DNA of 44,293 nucleotides from Escherichia phage vB_EcoP-UTI89UKE2 (MZ234049.1), one strand, 5' to 3'. Numbered from the stretch's first letter, positions 988 through 41,960 are shown. Program-made: numbers and translations. The notes: generated from the letters alone by a model not told the origin.

Positions 988-3615
988 ATGCAAGACCTAC
1001 ACGCTATTCAACTTCAACTTGAAGAAGAAATGTTTAACGGCGGTATCCGTCGCTTTGAAGCGGACCAACAACGCCAGATTGCATCCGGTAATGAATCAGA
1101 CACGGCATGGAATCGCCGCTTATTGTCCGAGTTAATCGCGCCAATGGCTGAAGGTATTCAGGCATACAAGGAAGAGTATGAAGGTAAAAGAGGCCGTGCA
1201 CCGCGTGCATTAGCTTTCATTAACTGCGTAGAAAACGAAGTGGCAGCATATATCACGATGAAAATCGTTATGGATATGCTGAACACGGATGTAACCTTGC
1301 AGGCTATAGCCATGAATGTAGCTGACCGCATTGAGGACCAAGTACGTTTTAGCAAGCTGGAAGGTCACGCCGCCAAATACTTTGAGAAAGTTAAGAAGTC
1401 ACTTAAGGCAAGTAAGACTAAATCATATCGCCATGCGCACAACGTAGCGGTCGTGGCTGAGAAGTCAGTAGCTGACCGTGACGCTGATTTCTCTCGCTGG
1501 GAGGCGTGGCCTAAAGATACCTTGCTACAAATTGGTATGACCTTGCTAGAAATACTGGAAAATAGTGTATTCTTCAATGGTCAGCCTGTCTTTCTTCGCA
1601 CCTTGCGCACTAATGGTGGCAAGCATGGCGTTTACTACTTACAGACTAGCGAACACGTGGGTGAATGGGTAACTGCATTTAAAGAGCACGTAGCTCAGCT
1701 GAGTCCAGCCTATGCGCCTTGCGTTATTCCTCCTCGTCCGTGGGTTTCTCCGTTTAATGGCGGCTTCCATACTGAGAAAGTAGCAAGCCGTATTCGTCTA
1801 GTAAAAGGCAATCGTGAGCACGTCCGCAAGCTGACCAAAAAGCAAATGCCAGCGGTTTACAAGGCTGTTAACGCTTTGCAGGCGACTAAGTGGCAGGTTA
1901 ATAAAGAGGTTTTGCAGGTAGTAGAGGACGTTATCCGTCTCGATCTTGGTTATGGTGTGCCTTCCTTTAAACCACTCATCGACCGTGAGAACAAGCCAGC
2001 TAATCCAGTGCCGTTAGAGTTCCAGCACCTGCGAGGCCGTGAATTGAAAGAGATGCTAACACCGGAGCAATGGCAGGCCTTCATCAACTGGAAGGGTGAA
2101 TGTACTAAGCTGTATACCGCTGAGACTAAGCGCGGCAGCAAGTCGGCGGCGACCGTCCGCATGGTAGGACAGGCCCGTAAATACAGCCAGTTTGACGCTA
2201 TTTATTTTGTATATGCACTGGATAGCCGTTCACGCGTTTATGCGCAATCTAGCACGCTCTCGCCGCAATCAAACGACTTAGGCAAGGCATTGCTCCGTTT
2301 TACCGAAGGGCAGCGTCTTGATAGCGCTGAGGCGCTTAAGTGGTTTTTGGTGAACGGGGCGAATAACTGGGGTTGGGATAAGAAAACTTTTGACGTGCGC
2401 ACCGCTAACGTGCTGGATAGTGAATTTCAAGACATGTGCCGCGACATTGCAGCGGATCCGCTGACCTTCACTCAATGGGTAAATGCCGACTCCCCTTACG
2501 GCTTCCTTGCATGGTGCTTTGAATATGCGCGTTATCTGGATGCACTGGATGAAGGCACGCAAGACCAATTCATGACGCACCTCCCAGTCCATCAAGATGG
2601 TAGTTGTTCTGGTATCCAGCACTACAGTGCTATGCTACGCGATGCAGTAGGTGCGAAAGCGGTAAACCTTAAGCCCTCTGACTCCCCTCAAGATATTTAT
2701 GGTGCCGTTGCGCAGGTAGTAATTCAGAAGAATTATGCATACATGAATGCAGAGGATGCGGAAACCTTCACTTCTGGCAGCGTGACTTTAACAGGTGCAG
2801 AACTTCGTAGCATGGCTAGTGCGTGGGATATGATAGGAATCACTCGCGGCCTGACCAAAAAGCCTGTAATGACACTACCTTATGGCAGCACACGTCTAAC
2901 CTGCCGTGAATCAGTGATTGATTATATCGTTGATTTGGAAGAAAAAGAGGCCCAACGGGCTATTGCGGAAGGGCGTACCGCCAATCCTGTACATCCTTTT
3001 GATAATGACCGCAAAGACAGCCTGACACCTAGCGCAGCTTATAACTATATGACAGCTTTAATCTGGCCTTCTATTTCGGAAGTGGTTAAAGCTCCTATAG
3101 TGGCAATGAAAATGATTCGTCAGCTTGCACGTTTCGCAGCTAAAAGAAACGAAGGCTTAGAATATCCCTTACCAACTGGCTTCATCTTGCAACAAAAGAT
3201 AATGGCTACCGATATGCTCCGCGTATCCACTTGCTTGATGGGTGAAATCAAGATGAGTCTCCAGATTGAAACAGATGTAGTTGATGAAACGGCAATGATG
3301 GGTGCGGCTGCTCCTAACTTCGTCCATGGTCACGATGCTAGCCACCTGATTCTGACTGTATGTGACCTAGTGGATAAAGGTATTACATCCATTGCAGTCA
3401 TCCATGATTCTTTCGGTACTCATGCAGGACGTACCGCAGACCTGCGGGATAGCTTAAGGGAAGAAATGGTTAAGATGTATCAAAACCATAATGCCCTGCA
3501 AAACCTGCTAGATGTGCACGAAGAGCGTTGGTTAGTAGACACCGGAATCCAAGTACCAGAGCAAGGAGAGTTTGACCTTAACGAAATCTTAGTTTCAGAC
3601 TATTGTTTCGCATAA
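988..3615 (+). CDS. single-subunit DNA-dependent RNA polymerase (T7/SP6 type; closest to SP6 RNAP by recollection)
   Basis: 875-aa ORF with RBS AGGAG at 972-976. Contains the family motifs [27 protein letters not shown] and [12 protein letters not shown], and a C-terminal DYCFA. Length and N-terminus [19 protein letters not shown] match SP6-type RNAP. Confidence 0.95.
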
Positions 3616-33142: not shown

Positions 33143-33337
33143 ATGATTAACTCCGAACTGGTAGATAGTGGTGTGAAGCTTGCGCCACCTGCATTAGTCT
33201 CAGGTGGGTACTTCCTCGGTATCAGTTGGGATAATTGGGTGTTAATAGCAACATTCATTTATACCGTGTTGCAAATTGGAGACTGGTTTTATACCAAGAT
33301 TAAACTATGGAGGAAGAATCGTGAGCGTCCACAATAA
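33143..33337 (+). CDS. putative holin (64 aa)
   Basis: RBS AAGGAGG; hydrophobic segment plus charged C-terminus KLWRKNRERPQ; position equivalent to T7 gp17.5. Confidence 0.55.
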   Translation: MINSELVDSGVKLAPPALVSGGYFLGISWDNWVLIATFIYTVLQIGDWFYTKIKLWRKNRERPQ

Positions 33338-33620
33338 ACATGCAGCTACGGAAGATGAGGTTGGCATCCTGCATGGTGCTATTACCAAAATCTTTAATAA
33401 GAAAGCACAGGCAATACTGGACACTATAGAAGAAGACCCAGATGCAGCACTGCATTTAGTCTCTGGTAAAGACATTGGAGCTATGTGTAAGTGGGTTCTT
33501 GATAATGGTATTACCGCTACACCTGCTGCACAGCAGGAGGAGTCCAAGCTATCTAAGCGCCTCAAGGCTATCCGAGAGGCATCAAGTGGCAAGATTATTC
33601 AATTCACTAAGGAGGATTGA
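33321..33620 (+). CDS. terminase small subunit (gp18-like); GTG start after RBS GGAGG
   Basis: Immediately upstream of, and overlapping, the large terminase gene. Confidence 0.5.
   Translation: MSVHNKHAATEDEVGILHGAITKIFNKKAQAILDTIEEDPDAALHLVSGKDIGAMCKWVLDNGITATPAAQQEESKLSKRLKAIREASSGKIIQFTKED
33413..33435 (+). promoter_or_regulatory. phage promoter-like sequence (AATACTGGACACTATAGAAGAAG) inside the small terminase gene
   Basis: One mismatch to the consensus, embedded in coding sequence (encodes ILDTIEED). Confidence 0.55.
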
Positions 33621-35518
33621 TGGCTAAGGCAAGAGAATCACAAGCGGAGGCTCTTGCCAGATGGGAGATGCTACAGGAGTTACAGCAGACCTTTCCTTAC
33701 ACAGCGGAAGGTTTGCTTCTCTTTGCAGATACAGTTATTCATAACTTAATTGCAGGCAACCCTCATCTGATTCGTATGCAGGCGGATATCTTGAAGTTCC
33801 TATTTTACGGACACAAGTACCGCCTCATCGAAGCGCCTCGTGGTATCGCTAAGACAACACTATCAGCAATCTATACGGTATTCCGTATTATTCATGAACC
33901 ACATAAGCGTATCATGGTTGTGTCCCAAAACGCCAAGCGAGCAGAGGAAATCGCAGGTTGGGTAGTTAAAATCTTCCGTGGCTTAGACTTTCTTGAGTTT
34001 ATGCTGCCGGATATCTACGCTGGGGACCGTGCATCCGTTAAGGCGTTTGAGATTCATTACACCCTACGTGGTAGTGATAAGTCTCCTTCTGTATCCTGTT
34101 ACTCAATCGAAGCAGGTATGCAGGGTGCTCGTGCTGATATTATTCTAGCGGATGACGTAGAGTCGATGCAGAATGCTCGTACGGCAGCGGGCCGTGCCTT
34201 GCTTGAGGAACTGACTAAGGAGTTTGAATCTATCAACCAGTTTGGGGATATCATTTACCTTGGTACACCTCAGAACGTAAACTCTATCTACAACAACCTG
34301 CCTGCTCGTGGTTACTCTGTTCGTATCTGGACTGCGCGTTACCCTTCAGTAGAGCAAGAGCAATGTTATGGCGACTTCCTTGCACCTATGATTGTTCAAG
34401 ATATGAAGGACAACCCAGCACTTCGCTCAGGGTACGGGTTGGATGGTAATAGTGGTGCACCTTGTGCCCCTGAAATGTATGATGATGAAGTCCTGATTGA
34501 GAAGGAAATCTCTCAGGGTGCTGCTAAGTTCCAGCTTCAGTTCATGCTTAACACTCGCATGATGGATGCTGACAGATACCCATTACGCCTGAACAATCTA
34601 ATCTTCACCTCGTTTGGTACAGAGGAAGTCCCTGTGATGCCTACGTGGAGTAATGATTCCATAAACATCATTGGTGATGCACCTAAGTATGGTAACAAGC
34701 CTACGGATTTCATGTACAGACCTGTAGCTCGCCCATACGAATGGGGTGCTGTCTCCCGCAAGATTATGTATATTGACCCTGCGGGTGGTGGTAAGAACGG
34801 AGATGAGACGGGTGTAGCCATCGTATTCCTGCACGGCACATTCATTTATGTGTATCAGTGCTTTGGTGTACCTGGCGGATACCGAGAGTCGTCCCTGAAT
34901 CGCATTGTGCAGGCCGCAAAGCAGGCGGGTGTTAAAGAGGTATTCATTGAGAAGAACTTTGGTCATGGCGCGTTTGAGGCGGTAATTAAGCCGTACTTTG
35001 AACGAGAGTGGCCTGTAACTCTGGAAGAGGATTACGCCACCGGACAGAAAGAGTTGCGTATCATTGAGACGCTGGAGCCGCTCATGGCAGCCCATAGGCT
35101 TATCTTCAATGCAGAGATGGTGAAGTCAGACTTTGAGTCGGTACAGCACTATCCGCTTGAACTACGCATGTCCTACAGTCTTTTCAATCAAATGTCGAAC
35201 ATAACGATTGAGAAGAACAGCCTCCGGCACGATGACCGCCTAGACGCCCTGTATGGCGCTATACGGCAATTAACTTCTCAGATAGACTATGACGAGGTTA
35301 CACGGATTAATCGCCTCAGAGCGCAGGAGATGCGCGATTACATCCATGCTATGAATACACCTCATCTACGCAGGGCAATGCTATATGGAGATTACGGTAC
35401 TGAGCGAAGAGTGACCAACACTTCCGTAGCGATGCAGCAGCGAGTTTACGGGCAGAACTACCGAAATAAATCGGCAAGCAGAAATACACTTTCTGCAAGG
35501 ATTTCAAGGACTTATTAA
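33620..35518 (+). CDS. terminase large subunit (gp19-like)
   Basis: Walker A-like RGIAKTT ... ILADDVE (Walker B) and C-terminal nuclease region. The track start at 33617 is a TTG. Confidence 0.9.
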   Translation: MAKARESQAEALARWEMLQELQQTFPYTAEGLLLFADTVIHNLIAGNPHLIRMQADILKFLFYGHKYRLIEAPRGIAKTTLSAIYTVFRIIHEPHKRIMVVSQNAKRAEEIAGWVVKIFRGLDFLEFMLPDIYAGDRASVKAFEIHYTLRGSDKSPSVSCYSIEAGMQGARADIILADDVESMQNARTAAGRALLEELTKEFESINQFGDIIYLGTPQNVNSIYNNLPARGYSVRIWTARYPSVEQEQCYGDFLAPMIVQDMKDNPALRSGYGLDGNSGAPCAPEMYDDEVLIEKEISQGAAKFQLQFMLNTRMMDADRYPLRLNNLIFTSFGTEEVPVMPTWSNDSINIIGDAPKYGNKPTDFMYRPVARPYEWGAVSRKIMYIDPAGGGKNGDETGVAIVFLHGTFIYVYQCFGVPGGYRESSLNRIVQAAKQAGVKEVFIEKNFGHGAFEAVIKPYFEREWPVTLEEDYATGQKELRIIETLEPLMAAHRLIFNAEMVKSDFESVQHYPLELRMSYSLFNQMSNITIEKNSLRHDDRLDALYGAIRQLTSQIDYDEVTRINRLRAQEMRDYIHAMNTPHLRRAMLYGDYGTERRVTNTSVAMQQRVYGQNYRNKSASRNTLSARISRTY

Positions 35519-37862: not shown

Positions 37863-37885
37863 ATTTACTGGACACTATAGAAGAG
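37863..37885 (+). promoter_or_regulatory. phage RNAP promoter (ATTTACTGGACACTATAGAAGAG) for the tailspike module
   Basis: Exact consensus. Confidence 0.8.
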
Positions 37886-38300: not shown

Positions 38301-38366
38301 GCACTGCTTTTCGCGCAACTTTTCTTAAAGGTTATCATGATGGTAGCCTTTCAGAAAGGAGGTTAC

Positions 38367-40802
38367 ATGATTCAAAGACTAGGTTCTTCATTAGTTAAAT
38401 TCAAGAGTAAAATAGCAGGTGCAATCTGGCGTAACTTGGATGACAAGCTCACCGAGGTTGTATCGCTTAAAGATTTTGGAGCCAAAGGTGATGGTAAGAC
38501 AAACGACCAAGATGCAGTAAATGCAGCGATGGCTTCAGGTAAGAGAATTGACGGTGCTGGTGCTACTTACAAAGTATCATCTTTACCTGATATGGAGCGA
38601 TTCTATAACACCCGCTTCGTATGGGAACGTTTAGCAGGTCAACCTCTTTACTATGTGAGTAAAGGTTTTATCAATGGTGAACTCTATAAAATCACGGACA
38701 ACCCTTATTACAATGCTTGGCCTCAAGACAAGGCGTTTGTATATGAGAATGTGATATATGCACCCTACATGGGTAGCGACCGTCATGGTGTTAGTCGTCT
38801 GCATGTATCATGGGTTAAGTCTGGTGACGATGGTCAAACATGGTCTACTCCAGAGTGGCTAACTGATCTGCATCCAGATTACCCTACAGTGAACTATCAT
38901 TGTATGAGTATGGGTGTATGTCGCAACCGTCTGTTTGCCATGATTGAAACACGTACTTTAGCCAAGAACGCACTAACCAATTGTGCATTGTGGGATCGCC
39001 CTATGTCTCGTAGTCTGCATCTTACTGGTGGTATCACTAAGGCTGCAAATCAGCGTTATGCAACAATCCATGTACCTGATCACGGATTATTCGTGGGCGA
39101 TTTTGTTAGCTTCTCTAATTCTGCGGTAACAGGTGTAACTGGTGATATGAAAGTTGCAACAGTTATAGATAAGGACAACTTCACGGTTCTTACAGCCAAT
39201 CAGCAGACCTCTGATTTGAACAATGCTGGAAAGAATTGGCACATGGGTACTTCCTTCCATAAGTCTCCATGGCGTAAGACAGATCTTGGCCTGATACCTC
39301 GTGTTACTGAAGTTCATAGCTTTGCTACTATTGATAACAATGGCTTTGTTATGGGTTATCACCAAGGCGACGTAGCTCCACGCGAAGTTGGTCTTTTCTA
39401 CTTCCCTGATGCTTTTAACAATCCATCTAATTATGTTCGTCGTCAGATACCATCTGAGTACGAACCGGGTGCTGCAGAGCCATGCATCAAGTACTATGAC
39501 GGTGTATTATACCTTATCACTCGTGGTACTCGTGGCGACCGACTAGGAAGCTCTTTGCATCGTAGTAGAGATATAGGTCAGACTTGGGAGTCACTGAGAT
39601 TTCCACATAATGTTCATCATACTACCTTACCTTTTGCTAAAGTAGGAGATGACCTTATTATGTTTGGTTCAGAACGTGCAGAAAATGAATGGGAAGCAGG
39701 TGCACCAGATGATCGTTACAAGGCATCTTATCCTCGTACCTTCTATGCACGATTGAATGTAAACAATTGGAATGCAGATGATATTGAATGGGTTAACATC
39801 ACAGACCAAATCTATCAAGGTGACATTGTGAACTCTAGTGTAGGTGTAGGTTCTGTTGTAGTTAAAGACAGCTACATTTACTATATCTTTGGTGGTGAAA
39901 ACCATTTCAACCCAATGACTTATGGTGACAACAAAGATAAAGACCCATTTAAAGGTAATGGACACCCTACTGATATATACTGCTATAAGATGCAGATTGC
40001 AAATGACAGTCGTGTATCTCGTAAGTTTACATATGGTGCAACTCCTGGTCAGGCTATACCTACTTTCATGGGTACTGATGGTATTCGCACTATTCCTGCT
40101 CCACTTCACTTATCAGGAGAGGTAGTTGCCGCAGATATGACTGTCGAACACCTTACCTTGAAGGCAAGTACAAGTGCTAATATTCGCTCAGAGATGCTGA
40201 TGGAGGGTGAATATGGGTTCATTGGTAAGACTATACCAACGGATAACCCAACCGCCCAACGTGTTATCATCTCTGGTGGAGAGGGTACAGCAGCAGATAC
40301 CGGTGCGCAAATTACCTTACACGGAGCAGGTTCTAGCACTTCTAGACGCGCAGTATATAATGCCAATGAGCACTTGTTCCAAAGTGGAGCTATCATGCCA
40401 TACAATGATAACGTGTATCCTGCTGGTGGCCCTCGTAATAGATTCACTACTATCCATCTTACAAGTGACCCTATTATTACGTCGGATGCCACTCATAAGT
40501 ATGGATCACAAGGTATTGATGAGAGTGTACTAAAGGCATGGGGTAAGGTTAGCTTCAAGCAGTACAAGTTGATTGGTGAGATGTCTCGTGGTGTGCACCA
40601 CACTCACTTTGGTGTATTGGCACAAGACATTGTAGCTGCTTTTGCATCCGAAGGGTTAGATGCAATCGACTTCGGCATTGTCTCCTTCGAAGAAGGTCAG
40701 TTTGGTGTTAGATATAGTGAAATCTTAATCTTGGAGGCTGCTTATACTCGCTATCGTTTAGACAAGTTAGAGGAGATGTATGCCACTAATAAAATCAGTT
40801 AA
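38367..40802 (+). CDS. tailspike endo-N-acetylneuraminidase (endosialidase) with C-terminal intramolecular chaperone domain
   Basis: 811 aa from ATG 38367 (RBS AAGGAGG). Sequence recognised from memory as K1-phage endosialidase, including the C-terminal block ending YATNKIS. Confidence 0.88.
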   Translation: MIQRLGSSLVKFKSKIAGAIWRNLDDKLTEVVSLKDFGAKGDGKTNDQDAVNAAMASGKRIDGAGATYKVSSLPDMERFYNTRFVWERLAGQPLYYVSKGFINGELYKITDNPYYNAWPQDKAFVYENVIYAPYMGSDRHGVSRLHVSWVKSGDDGQTWSTPEWLTDLHPDYPTVNYHCMSMGVCRNRLFAMIETRTLAKNALTNCALWDRPMSRSLHLTGGITKAANQRYATIHVPDHGLFVGDFVSFSNSAVTGVTGDMKVATVIDKDNFTVLTANQQTSDLNNAGKNWHMGTSFHKSPWRKTDLGLIPRVTEVHSFATIDNNGFVMGYHQGDVAPREVGLFYFPDAFNNPSNYVRRQIPSEYEPGAAEPCIKYYDGVLYLITRGTRGDRLGSSLHRSRDIGQTWESLRFPHNVHHTTLPFAKVGDDLIMFGSERAENEWEAGAPDDRYKASYPRTFYARLNVNNWNADDIEWVNITDQIYQGDIVNSSVGVGSVVVKDSYIYYIFGGENHFNPMTYGDNKDKDPFKGNGHPTDIYCYKMQIANDSRVSRKFTYGATPGQAIPTFMGTDGIRTIPAPLHLSGEVVAADMTVEHLTLKASTSANIRSEMLMEGEYGFIGKTIPTDNPTAQRVIISGGEGTAADTGAQITLHGAGSSTSRRAVYNANEHLFQSGAIMPYNDNVYPAGGPRNRFTTIHLTSDPIITSDATHKYGSQGIDESVLKAWGKVSFKQYKLIGEMSRGVHHTHFGVLAQDIVAAFASEGLDAIDFGIVSFEEGQFGVRYSEILILEAAYTRYRLDKLEEMYATNKIS

Positions 40803-40929
40803 GCAATCTGCTGTACGCCAGAACACAGAAGAACTTATTCAATCAGGACGTGACCCTAAGCAGGCATATGCCATTGCCAAGGATGTACAACGTCGTGACT
40901 TGAAGAAACCTTCTGCATCTTCTGCTTAA
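40780..40929 (+). CDS. small basic ORF (49 aa) overlapping the 3' end of the tailspike gene
   Basis: ATG at 40780 in the +1 frame after GGAG; TAA at 40927-40929. Confidence 0.25.
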   Translation: MPLIKSVKQSAVRQNTEELIQSGRDPKQAYAIAKDVQRRDLKKPSASSA

Positions 40930-40939
40930 GCAGGTTAAT

Positions 40940-41100
40940 ATCTTAGTGTACACAAGGGCAGACCTAGGTTTGCTCTTAGTGCCATCAAAGGAGGGTGTAG
41001 GTATGTTATCTTTGTTGTGTATACTCAGTGATGTCCTAGGTCGTAAGAGGTACATTCTTAGTGAAGACCAAATAAGGGACGAGAAGATACGGAGGTCGCT
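40940..41100. repeat. CTTAGT(G) repeat copies to the left of the GC-rich terminal segment
   Basis: CTTAGTG at about 40942, 40975 and 41057; the 17-mer AAGGGCAGACCTAGGTT (40954-40970) also occurs at 3854-3870. Confidence 0.5.
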
Positions 41101-41139
41101 CACAAAGTAACCAAAGTCAAAATTTTGATATAGGCGTGT

Positions 41140-41460
41140 GTGAGGTGTCTCGCCCTCGCCCTCGCCGGATTTCCCCCATATGGGGCCGCGCTGCGGTTGG
41201 CTTGGGAATTGGGCTGGGCTGGTCCGTCTTCGACGGGTGGCCTAGGGCTTGCCGAGGTCTGCTCTTAGTGGCTGCACAAGGAGAACGCCTAGGAAGCGCT
41301 AGGGCACGCCTTAGTATTGGACAAGGTGATTGCCTTAGTGCAATCGCTTAGGGCTTACACAGGGCGTTTTAGGGCCATTCCTGAGCGTTTGACAGGGTGT
41401 GAGGGCGTGGGCTATCTGTTCGTTTCGTTCACTACGCTTGCGCTCCGTTCACTCGCTCAC
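41140..41460. other. GC-rich non-coding segment, probable genome terminus / direct terminal repeat region
   Basis: No credible ORF; CGCCCT x3 and the palindrome CCCCATATGGGG (41174-41185), which resembles the CCCCCATAGGGGG element near the T7 left end; flanked by heptamer repeat arrays as the T7 terminal repeat is flanked by CCTAAAG arrays. Confidence 0.5.
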
Positions 41461-41465
41461 GTGTA

Positions 41466-41595
41466 CCTTAGGTTATTACTTGATGGATAGCTTAGGTTAA
41501 CCTTAGTGGAATGCCTTAGTTAAAGACTTAGTGCTTATCTTAGTAACAGCTTAGTAGTGTACCTTAGTTGGTCTTAGTGAATAGCCTTAGTGATT
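41466..41595. repeat. dense array of about 11 C/T-TTAG-G/T-T/G heptamer repeats at 10-13 bp spacing
   Basis: CCTTAGGTT, GCTTAGGTT, CCTTAGTGG, GCCTTAGTT, ACTTAGTGC, TCTTAGTAA, GCTTAGTAG, CCTTAGTTG, TCTTAGTGA, CCTTAGTGA, with more copies out to 41915. Confidence 0.75.
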
Positions 41596-41788
41596 GCACA
41601 TGCAAGCATGTAAGATGCCAATAGGTCGCGGTCGGTAGACCGCTAAAGAAAGAGAATAGTAATAAGATGCAGTAGGAGGAACACCAGAAACCTAGCCAAC
41701 CTAGCCTATCCTAGCTCTGTATCTATTGCTTTTCCTTAGTCTAACATGTGAGACAACCTAGATTTATCTTAGTGATGATAGCTTAGTG

Positions 41789-41817
41789 TTGACAAGGCCG
41801 TCTCAATGTAATACTAT
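41789..41817 (+). promoter_or_regulatory. candidate host sigma70 early promoter (-35 TTGACA, 17-bp spacer, -10 TACTAT)
   Basis: Hexamer match and spacing; upstream of the first early gene. Confidence 0.4.
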
Positions 41818-41884
41818 TCATCGCGTAGGCAGCACTGAGGTGCTTAGTAGCCAGCTAGTAAGGCATACGAAGAGACTAGCGCTT

Positions 41885-41915
41885 ACATTGCTCTTTAACA
41901 ATTTGCTTAGTGTAA
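41885..41915 (+). promoter_or_regulatory. early leader module 1 containing CTCTTTAACAATTTG
   Basis: First of five copies of a CTCTTTAACAAT-containing element before early genes; the same core is recalled from the T7 gene 0.3 leader (RNase III site R0.3). Confidence 0.45.
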
Positions 41916-41960
41916 CCTATGTATGCCGTGGTTAATTACTTATTGAATGAGGGATTAACT

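Follow-up and report, generated by a model that had tools for sequence, protein, structure and literature searches.

Which positions of the genome of Escherichia phage vB_EcoP-UTI89UKE2 (MZ234049.1) form the physical ends of the virion DNA, and what role do the short repeats crowded around them play? The question is raised by a mostly non-coding region of about 1 kb in the window (the whole stretch of 44,293 nucleotides that was analysed, one strand, 5' to 3'), which is limited on the left by a small gene ending at 40929 and followed by the first supported early gene, starting at about 41961. Taken as a whole, this region is very probably the concatemer junction of a K1E-like podovirus of the T7 supergroup with a collapsed direct terminal repeat (DTR), which is the best explanation for the set of features collected in Table 1.

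By nucleotide similarity, the window is a K1E-like Vectrevirus (K1E/K1-5 group, Molineuxvirinae, SP6-like branch of the T7 supergroup). A segment of 1,061 bases around the junction is a 100% match to Escherichia phage vB_EcoP-UTI89UKE3 (MZ234050.1, 44,294 bp), and the repeat and its flanks are similar to those of K1E-group phages: over the query 41100-41480, identity is 94-97% to ULINTec4, the K1E isolate KY435490 and Mt1B1_P10 (96.8% for the latter), with KAW1A4500 at 93.7% and the K1E type record AM084415 at 85.4%. All large genes are encoded on the + strand, and PHROG matches identify the phage-encoded single-subunit RNA polymerase and the two-subunit terminase required of a T7-type phage; the terminase subunits (33276..35518) would be expected to work on the junction.

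The first-pass annotation had described the region as about 1 kb of non-coding DNA. It indeed holds no family-supported genes, but small ORFs are annotated in it, so that it is not wholly ORF-free. Those annotated at 41003-41110 and 41136-41351 were rejected as unsupported, since they belong to no PHROG family and one of them spans the predicted physical left end.

Table 1. Junction features and related genes in the window (positions counted from its first letter).
Feature	Position	Strand	Basis or details
Single-subunit phage RNA polymerase	988..3615	+	PHROG phrog_414, E = 3e-290
Small terminase subunit	33276-33620	+	PHROG phrog_891, E = 3e-25
Large terminase subunit	33617-35518	+	PHROG phrog_17672, E = 9e-241
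Endosialidase-type tailspike	38337-40802	+	PHROG
Last supported gene before the junction, conserved small protein of 49 aa	40780..40929	+	phrog_2423, E = 3.8e-23; annotated UTI89UKE3_053
Right-end repeat cluster, analogous to T7 SRR	40942..41063	+	CTTAGTG at 40942, 40975, 41057
Conserved block directly left of the repeat, (C)AAAGTCAAAATTTTGATATAGGCGTGTGT(G/C)AG...	41104..41147	.	Nearly invariant from SP6 to K1E
Predicted direct terminal repeat, 267 bp, once in the assembly	41148..41414	+	Boundaries coincide with relatives' exact terminal repeats
Palindrome CCCCCATATGGGG	41173..41185	.	Starts at predicted genome base 26
Heptamers inside the repeat	41264..41374	+	CTTAG at 41264, 41310, 41334, 41347; TTTAGGG at 41368
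TATCTGTT, then T-rich CGTTTCGTT; match to the class II pause/termination signal	41413..41420	+	HATCTGTT
Dense left-end array, analogous to T7 SRL	41467..41592	+	Ten CTTAG(T/G)(G/T/A) units, ~12 bp apart
Two small palindromes/hairpins after the array	41598..41643	+	Conserved
Five scattered CTTAG units	41735..41912	+	41735, 41768, 41782, 41843, 41906
First host-type early promoter candidate, TTGACA-17-TACTAT	41789-41817	+	Promoter scan; scattered CTTAG units around

The terminal repeat and its boundaries

The GC-rich segment noticed in the first-pass annotation is real and corresponds to 41148-41414, with a GC content of 60.7% as against 45.1% for the genome and about 42% for both flanks. A search with 41100-41480 as the query retrieved 137 phage records. 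KAW1A4500, fTuEco01 and ACG-C91 start exactly at window position 41148, K1E AM084415, mutPK1A2, EC120 and Mt1B1_P10 end exactly at 41414, and the segment is present twice in each of these records. In six phages, the length of the repeat was taken as the longest exact prefix-suffix identity of both record ends, which yielded 288 bp for K1E, 234 bp for K1-5, 174 bp for SP6, 267 bp for both KAW1A4500 and Mt1B1_P10, and 160 bp for T7.

In the SP6 group, the repeat starts with (TC)TCGCCCTCGCC, before which ...GATATAGGCGTGTGT(C/G)AG... stands at the right end, and it finishes with ...GGGC(G)TGGGCTA, followed at the left end by TCTGTTCG. The first-pass annotation had suggested a left end near 41148 from a TCTC start, and this is the exact position at which the records of K1E (AM084415), SP6 (NC_004831) and KAW1A4500 begin, all of them reading TCTC(G/T)C.... 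The left boundary is 1-2 nt apart among records, as K1-5 starts 2 nt further in (TCGCC) and Mt1B1_P10 1 nt (CTCGCC). The right boundary reads ...GGGCTA|TCTGTT in K1E, K1-5, SP6, KAW1A4500 and Mt1B1_P10, as in the window at 41414|41415, and the repeats of these five phages are of the same sequence family as that of the window, with a TCTCGCCCTCGCC start and the same CTTAG arrays.

Because the window shares the boundary sequences of its SP6-group relatives at both 41147|41148 (where the repeat starts with TCTCGCCCTCGCC) and 41414|41415 (where it ends with ...GGGCTA|TCTGTT), the repeat is assigned to 41148-41414. Its predicted length of 267 bp is that of KAW1A4500 and Mt1B1_P10; position 41148 is the predicted left end of the genome and 41414 the predicted right end, with the repeat predicted to occur twice in the virion DNA. 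The DTR is annotated in the records of Mt1B1_P10 and mutPK1A2, and a terminal repeat of 266 bp has been published for KAW1A4500 (PMC6563267). In UAB_Phi78, whose repeat was mapped by run-off sequencing (PMC4837284), the annotated DTR is displaced upstream at both edges, its start by ~16 nt relative to the SP6-type start and its end by ~10 nt relative to the TCTGTT boundary. The start of the ULINTec4 record, at window position 41002, was considered as a rival terminus and rejected: the two ends of this record do not overlap but abut each other relative to the window, meaning that it is opened at an arbitrary point.

It has been reported that short-read assemblers commonly collapse the DTRs of T7-like phages and place them mid-contig (PMC10438801). 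Homology with the relatives above points to the same for the window: the assembler would have merged the two repeat copies and opened the circle elsewhere, and the virion DNA is predicted to be linear, from 41148 to 41414, with the 267-bp repeat at both ends. The location of the termini and of a DTR collapsed to one copy, both proposed in the first-pass annotation, is in this way supported by five relatives in which both record ends agree. With the second 267-bp copy, the virion genome would be about 44,560 bp long.

Compared with the records of the K1E/K1-5/SP6 group, MZ234050.1 differs only in its permutation, its single copy of the repeat, the absence of a terminal repeat annotation and the hypothetical CDSs called across the repeat. 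Since this record starts in the middle of the early-to-middle genes, it represents a circularly opened assembly. The terminal repeat and the junction layout are already known from T7, SP6, K1-5 and K1E, and are annotated in several near-identical Vectrevirus records; the terminal repeats of SP6, K1-5 and K1E have reportedly been published for those phages. The contribution made here is one of curation: MZ234050.1 was opened arbitrarily, lacks the second 267-bp copy and probably carries spurious gene calls across the repeat, and if the record were re-oriented with 41148 as its first base, it could be compared with those of K1E, K1-5 and SP6.

Boundary elements and the pause signal

The 44-bp block directly to the left of the repeat hardly varies between SP6 and K1E, whereas the sequence immediately before it cannot be aligned. 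This block contains the perfect 12-bp palindrome TCAAAATTTTGA (41117-41128) and is a candidate recognition or hairpin element for the left-end cut. Folding of single-stranded DNA around the left boundary (41100-41200) was no better than that of shuffled sequences (z = -1.1). Inside the repeat, the palindrome CCCCCATATGGGG mentioned in the first-pass annotation was found at 41173-41185.

The sequence TATCTGTTCGTTTCGTT (41413-41429) straddles the right edge of the repeat. It places on the transcribed strand a match to HATCTGTT followed by a T-rich tract, and this octamer has only one copy on the + strand of the 44-kb window. HATCTGTT is found at the same position in K1E, K1-5, SP6, Phi78, Pm5460, P3a, T7 and T3. 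In the Klebsiella phage K1-ULIP33, ATCTATT appears in place of ATCTGTT, and given this phage the pause signal may not be strictly required. For T7-type RNA polymerases, HATCTGTT with a T-rich tract constitutes the class II signal for pausing or termination, which needs no hairpin and has one natural copy in the T7 concatemer junction (PMC11347151; bioRxiv 10.1101/2021.01.11.426313; PMC11617373; bioRxiv 10.64898/2026.02.12.705533).

Eight phage promoters with the consensus ATTTACTGGACACTATAGAAG were located in the window. Those nearest to the junction are at 37863, the last one before it, and 43959, and none was found in 40900-41920. Because the promoter at 37863 lies upstream and no convincing + strand terminator was found between it and the junction, late transcription should reach the signal at 41413, and the phage RNA polymerase is expected to pause at 41413-41420.

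The first-pass annotation had drawn a parallel with the concatemer junction of T7, and this parallel goes further than was proposed. The window shares with T7 and T3 a TCTC left end (TCTCGCC... at 41148), HATCTGTT at the right edge of the repeat, and heptamers in one orientation before, inside and after the repeat, which in T7/T3 are of the TAAAG type with a 13-bp spacing (12-13 bp overall). About 25 bases into the repeat, a C-run/G-run palindrome occurs in both cases: the C-run palindrome CCCCCATAGGGGG of T7 starts at base 26, the same offset as CCCCCATATGGGG in the window. The machinery (RNA polymerase and terminase) is also of the same kind. Nevertheless, there is no alignable sequence similarity beyond these short elements; the repeated unit is CCTAAAG in T7/T3 and CTTAGTG here; the repeat of the window is GC-rich and longer (267 bp versus 160 or 231 bp); and its boundary lies 1 nt later with respect to ATCTGTT (CTA|TCTGTT here, CCCT|ATCTGTT in T7/T3). 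Moreover, T7 has phiOL and phiOR beside the junction, in contrast to the window, where no phage promoters adjoin it. This adds weight to the view that the junction design of T7 (end sequence, base-26 palindrome, pause site at the edge and heptamers) is conserved between subfamilies with almost no nucleotide similarity. The Pseudomonas phage phiKMV has no pause signal and uses other short words, and this single comparison suggests that the details of the junction are lineage-specific within a common plan.

The CTTAG heptamers

On its + strand, the interval 40930-41920 contains 22 copies of the CTTAG core, and on its - strand none, as against 0.95 copies expected from the rest of the genome, an excess of about 23-fold (Poisson p about 1e-22). 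In the same interval, CTTAGT is found 19 times (0.26 expected) and CTTAGTG 12 times (0.15 expected), and a ranking of k-mers made without bias places CTTAG-type words at the top at k = 5, 6 and 7. The consensus over the 22 copies is B-CTTAG-T-G. Three copies precede the DTR, four are inside and 15 follow it (10 in the dense array and 5 scattered), so that one-oriented arrays of short repeats lie on both sides of the repeat, as at a T7-type junction. The abundance claimed by the first-pass annotation is consequently real, although the count of about 20 is 18 on the + strand and 0 on the - strand of 40940-41920 when its own motif (YTTAGKK) is used. Likewise, the heptamers do flank the GC-rich segment as had been stated, but they also occur inside it, with four CTTAG copies and several CCTAG variants.

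The right-end cluster contains, in addition to the copies listed in Table 1, CCTAGG variants at 40963 and 41035. CCTAGG can be regarded as a one-base variant of the unit because the copy at 40963 reads CTTAGG in K1E, K1-5 and SP6. The CTTAGTG aligned with 40975 is present at 7/7 right ends, and the sites aligned with 40942 and 40963 are kept at all seven except that of mutPK1A2; in K1E, K1-5 and SP6, the CTTAG copies before the DTR are precisely the sites aligned with 40942, 40963 and 40975. The copy at 41057 is restricted to the window, KAW1A4500 and Mt1B1_P10.

The dense array announced in the first-pass annotation exists at 41467-41590, with 10 cores and not 11. It begins 53 bp past the repeat, and its cores, at 41467, 41491, 41502, 41515, 41527, 41539, 41550, 41563, 41573 and 41586, are separated by 24, 11, 13, 12, 12, 11, 13, 10 and 13 bp. 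The 12-bp spacing is not a helical repeat. Further downstream, heptamer copies also surround the early promoter candidate, an observation that a pure packaging role would leave unexplained.

The same layout was found in seven relatives from four host genera, namely K1E, K1-5, SP6, UAB_Phi78, the Raoultella phage P3a, the Klebsiella phage K1-ULIP33 and the Proteus phage Pm5460. In all of them, a few copies stand before the repeat, 1-4 inside it, and a dense run with roughly 12-bp spacing about 50-75 bp after it, with further copies extending into the early promoter region and nearly all copies on the + strand. In an alignment of 10 phages, the CTTAGT cores are nearly invariant and the spacers variable, with a mean pairwise identity of 0.87 in the core columns as compared with 0.54 in those of the spacers; against the window, the Salmonella, Klebsiella and Proteus phages show 0.78-0.85 in the cores and 0.34-0.45 in the spacers, a contrast which is somewhat inflated because aligners stack repeated cores. 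As number, spacing and orientation are kept, these comparisons argue for selection on the heptamer units themselves.

Two small hairpins follow the dense array. The first one, ACATGC-AA-GCATGT (41598-41611), has changes on both sides in 3/5 pairs across 8 phages, and the second one, GCGGTC-GGTA-GACCGC (41628-41643), reads GCTTGC-TGGA-AGCAAGC by eye in Pm5460. No known structured RNA was matched in the junction region in Rfam at E up to 1.

Possible roles of the junction and its arrays

According to the biology of T7, replicated genomes would be joined head to tail through one copy of the GC-rich repeat, whose high GC content should help joining. The RNA polymerase, starting from the late promoter at 37863 and moving rightward through the tailspike gene, would pause at TATCTGTT and the T-rich tract. 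A terminase-prohead complex would then cut at 41414|41415 to generate the right end and at 41147|41148 to generate the left end, and repair synthesis would duplicate the repeat, giving two copies per packaged genome. Recognition of the cut sites is likely to involve both the TCAAAATTTTGA block and the palindrome with the C-run that starts at base 26.

The heptamers, all in one orientation, are putative targets of a DNA-binding protein that acts as a multimer, the small terminase with its ring form being the most plausible one; such a protein, once bound, would label the junction and define its direction. It is tentatively proposed, as a possibility, that the CTTAG arrays, together with the co-varying hairpins downstream, constitute a scaffold for a small terminase ring or for another phage protein that sets polarity. 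A comparable grouping of short oriented repeats next to the place where a terminase cuts is known from the R sites of lambda cosB and the hexamer repeats of P1 pac, although these systems differ in using cos or headful packaging, other terminase families and other repeat sequences. In the literature searched, which left the primary T7 packaging papers outside its scope, no experimental support was found for a role of the T7 arrays in processing or packaging; the CTTAG heptamer and the names of the T7 short repeats gave nothing relevant either, the SP6 and K1-5 genome papers also being outside that scope. If the scaffold proposal were true, it would explain what the arrays of short repeats next to the terminal repeat of T7 are for, and the difference between CTTAGTG (SP6 group) and CCTAAAG (T7/T3) would represent a packaging-specificity code. 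The arrays also offer a clean target for studying how terminases of the T7 type recognise the sites at which they cut and give them an orientation.

A different use of the same elements, with the junction and repeat as described, would be in early events (control of early transcription or entry of the leading end), through the binding of a host or phage protein, and not in packaging. The promoter candidate at 41789-41817 has scattered copies on either side, five in all, and two of these stand just before its -35 element; in T7, the TAAAG units similarly extend as far as 308 bp beyond the repeat, into the region of the early promoter. In T7, it is the left-end side that enters the cell first; the heptamers of the window would be in the first ~800 bp to enter, with the dense array on the left-end side. 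However, this role would have no need of the heptamers located inside the repeat or at the extreme right of the genome, and no candidate binding protein has been found for it, for which reasons it is considered unlikely.

Another reading would see in the arrays the iterons of an origin of replication close to the end of the genome, similar to the secondary origins that T7 has near its ends. Origins typically contain short direct units of one orientation, spaced regularly, and the two conserved small hairpins after the array would fit with this. The units nevertheless measure only 7 bp and no gene for an initiator lies beside them; the origins of T7 require phage promoters, which are lacking in the junction; and the origin of SP6 is cited near the DNA polymerase gene in a paper on a relative (PMC4837284). 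An origin at this place is accordingly improbable.

It is very improbable that the heptamers lack a function and are what tandem duplication or slippage has left behind at a non-coding end of the genome. Some slippage would fit with the variation among relatives in the DTR (174-288 bp) and in the dense array (8-11 copies), but the orientation is kept, and the cores exceed the spacers in identity in the Salmonella, Klebsiella and Proteus phages, a contrast to be read with the stacking by aligners in mind. Finally, a genome with no fixed ends, packaged by a headful mechanism into circularly permuted molecules with the GC-rich segment as a pac-like or regulatory island, is scarcely conceivable: the deposited record and several relatives are permuted and have no repeat annotated, yet at least five relatives, close to moderately close, carry exact repeats at both record ends with fixed, sequence-identical boundaries, and ULINTec4, which starts elsewhere, is devoid of any terminal overlap.

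Other promoter-like sequences in the region were discarded. The heptamers are not copies of the upstream half of the SP6 promoter (TTTAGGTG), as the eight promoters of the window read ATTTACTGGACACTATAGAAG and none of them lies in 40900-41920. The TTGACA at 41389-41394 is not spaced, by eye, as a sigma-70 promoter would be, and the scan gave only 41789-41817 on the + strand. The same holds for the TAAGATGC motifs (41611-41618 and 41663-41670), which have an unfit spacing by eye and do not appear in the scan; both motifs are conserved.

Conserved elements downstream of the heptamer array

Two small palindromic, hairpin-like elements lie immediately 3' of the heptamer array, and their pairing is preserved by compensatory changes between genera among the relatives compared. 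The first hairpin reads ACATGC-AA-GCATGT in the window, ATAGCT-AA-AGCTAT in K1E and ACAAGC-AA-GCTTGT in the Proteus phage Pm5460, while the second is GCGGTC-GGTA-GACCGC in the window and GCTTGC-TGGA-AGCAAGC in Pm5460. Neither matches an Rfam family.

The same region holds a repeated octamer. Of the ten relatives compared, nine, the Proteus phage among them, retain both copies. The exception is Klebsiella phage K1-ULIP33, in which both copies are changed, to TAAGGTGC and GGAGATGC. A conserved AGTAGGAGGAACACC follows the second copy. A TAAGAT in this region resembles a -10 element but has no -35 element within a usable distance. The CCTAGC units are also kept in K1E, K1-5 and SP6.

Features in and around the terminal repeat, and the phage promoters (window coordinates)
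Feature	Position	Strand	Remarks
Hypothetical CDS UTI89UKE3_055	41136-41351		deposited record
TTGACA hexamer	41389-41394		
Hypothetical CDS UTI89UKE3_056	41399-41500		deposited record
Two small palindromes (hairpins)	41598-41611; 41628-41643		immediately 3' of heptamer array
Octamer TAAGATGC, two copies	41611-41618; 41663-41670		52 bp apart
Three tandem-like CCTAGC units (aaCCTAGCcaaCCTAGCctatCCTAGCtc)	41691-41715		between hairpins and early promoter
Eight phage-polymerase promoters, consensus ATTTACTGGACACTATAGAAG	6009; 6857; 10385; 12387; 15555; 20636; 37863; 43959	+	

The right edge of the terminal repeat

K1-ULIP33 also differs at the edge of its repeat (160-170), where ATCTATT replaces the strictly conserved core ATCTGTT of the class II pause signal, which makes this phage a natural test of the need for that signal. 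A TTGACA hexamer, kept in every relative examined except K1-ULIP33, lies 18 bp upstream of the TATCTG at the right edge of the repeat. The T7 junction pause site has been reported to act also as an Escherichia coli promoter (bioRxiv 10.64898/2026.02.12.705533), and the pair formed by TTGACA and TATCTG may, by analogy, represent a comparable case.

Gene calls and repeat limits

Two hypothetical CDSs, UTI89UKE3_055 and UTI89UKE3_056, are called across the terminal repeat in the deposited record, and one of them crosses the physical left end. No PHROG family was found when the ORF of UTI89UKE3_055 was scanned. Both are probably not genes, and 'gp48' of K1E is a call of the same sort.

In the SP6 relative UAB_Phi78, the annotated terminal repeat (1-180) begins about 16 nt ahead of the TCTC start of SP6 and stops about 10 nt short of the GGGCTA|TCTGTT boundary, an offset that reflects either imprecise run-off mapping or different cut sites.

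Comparison with T7 and T3

Whereas T7 and T3 have phiOL and phiOR, none of the eight phage promoters in the window adjoins the terminal repeat. Reverse-complemented, the T7 unit CCTAAAG reads CTTTAGG, which is one base longer than the CTTAGG/CTTAGT of the SP6 group but lies on the opposite strand; in this comparison, made between T7 1-500 and window 41467-41592, the likeness could be a coincidence or could reflect a distant kinship with inverted polarity.
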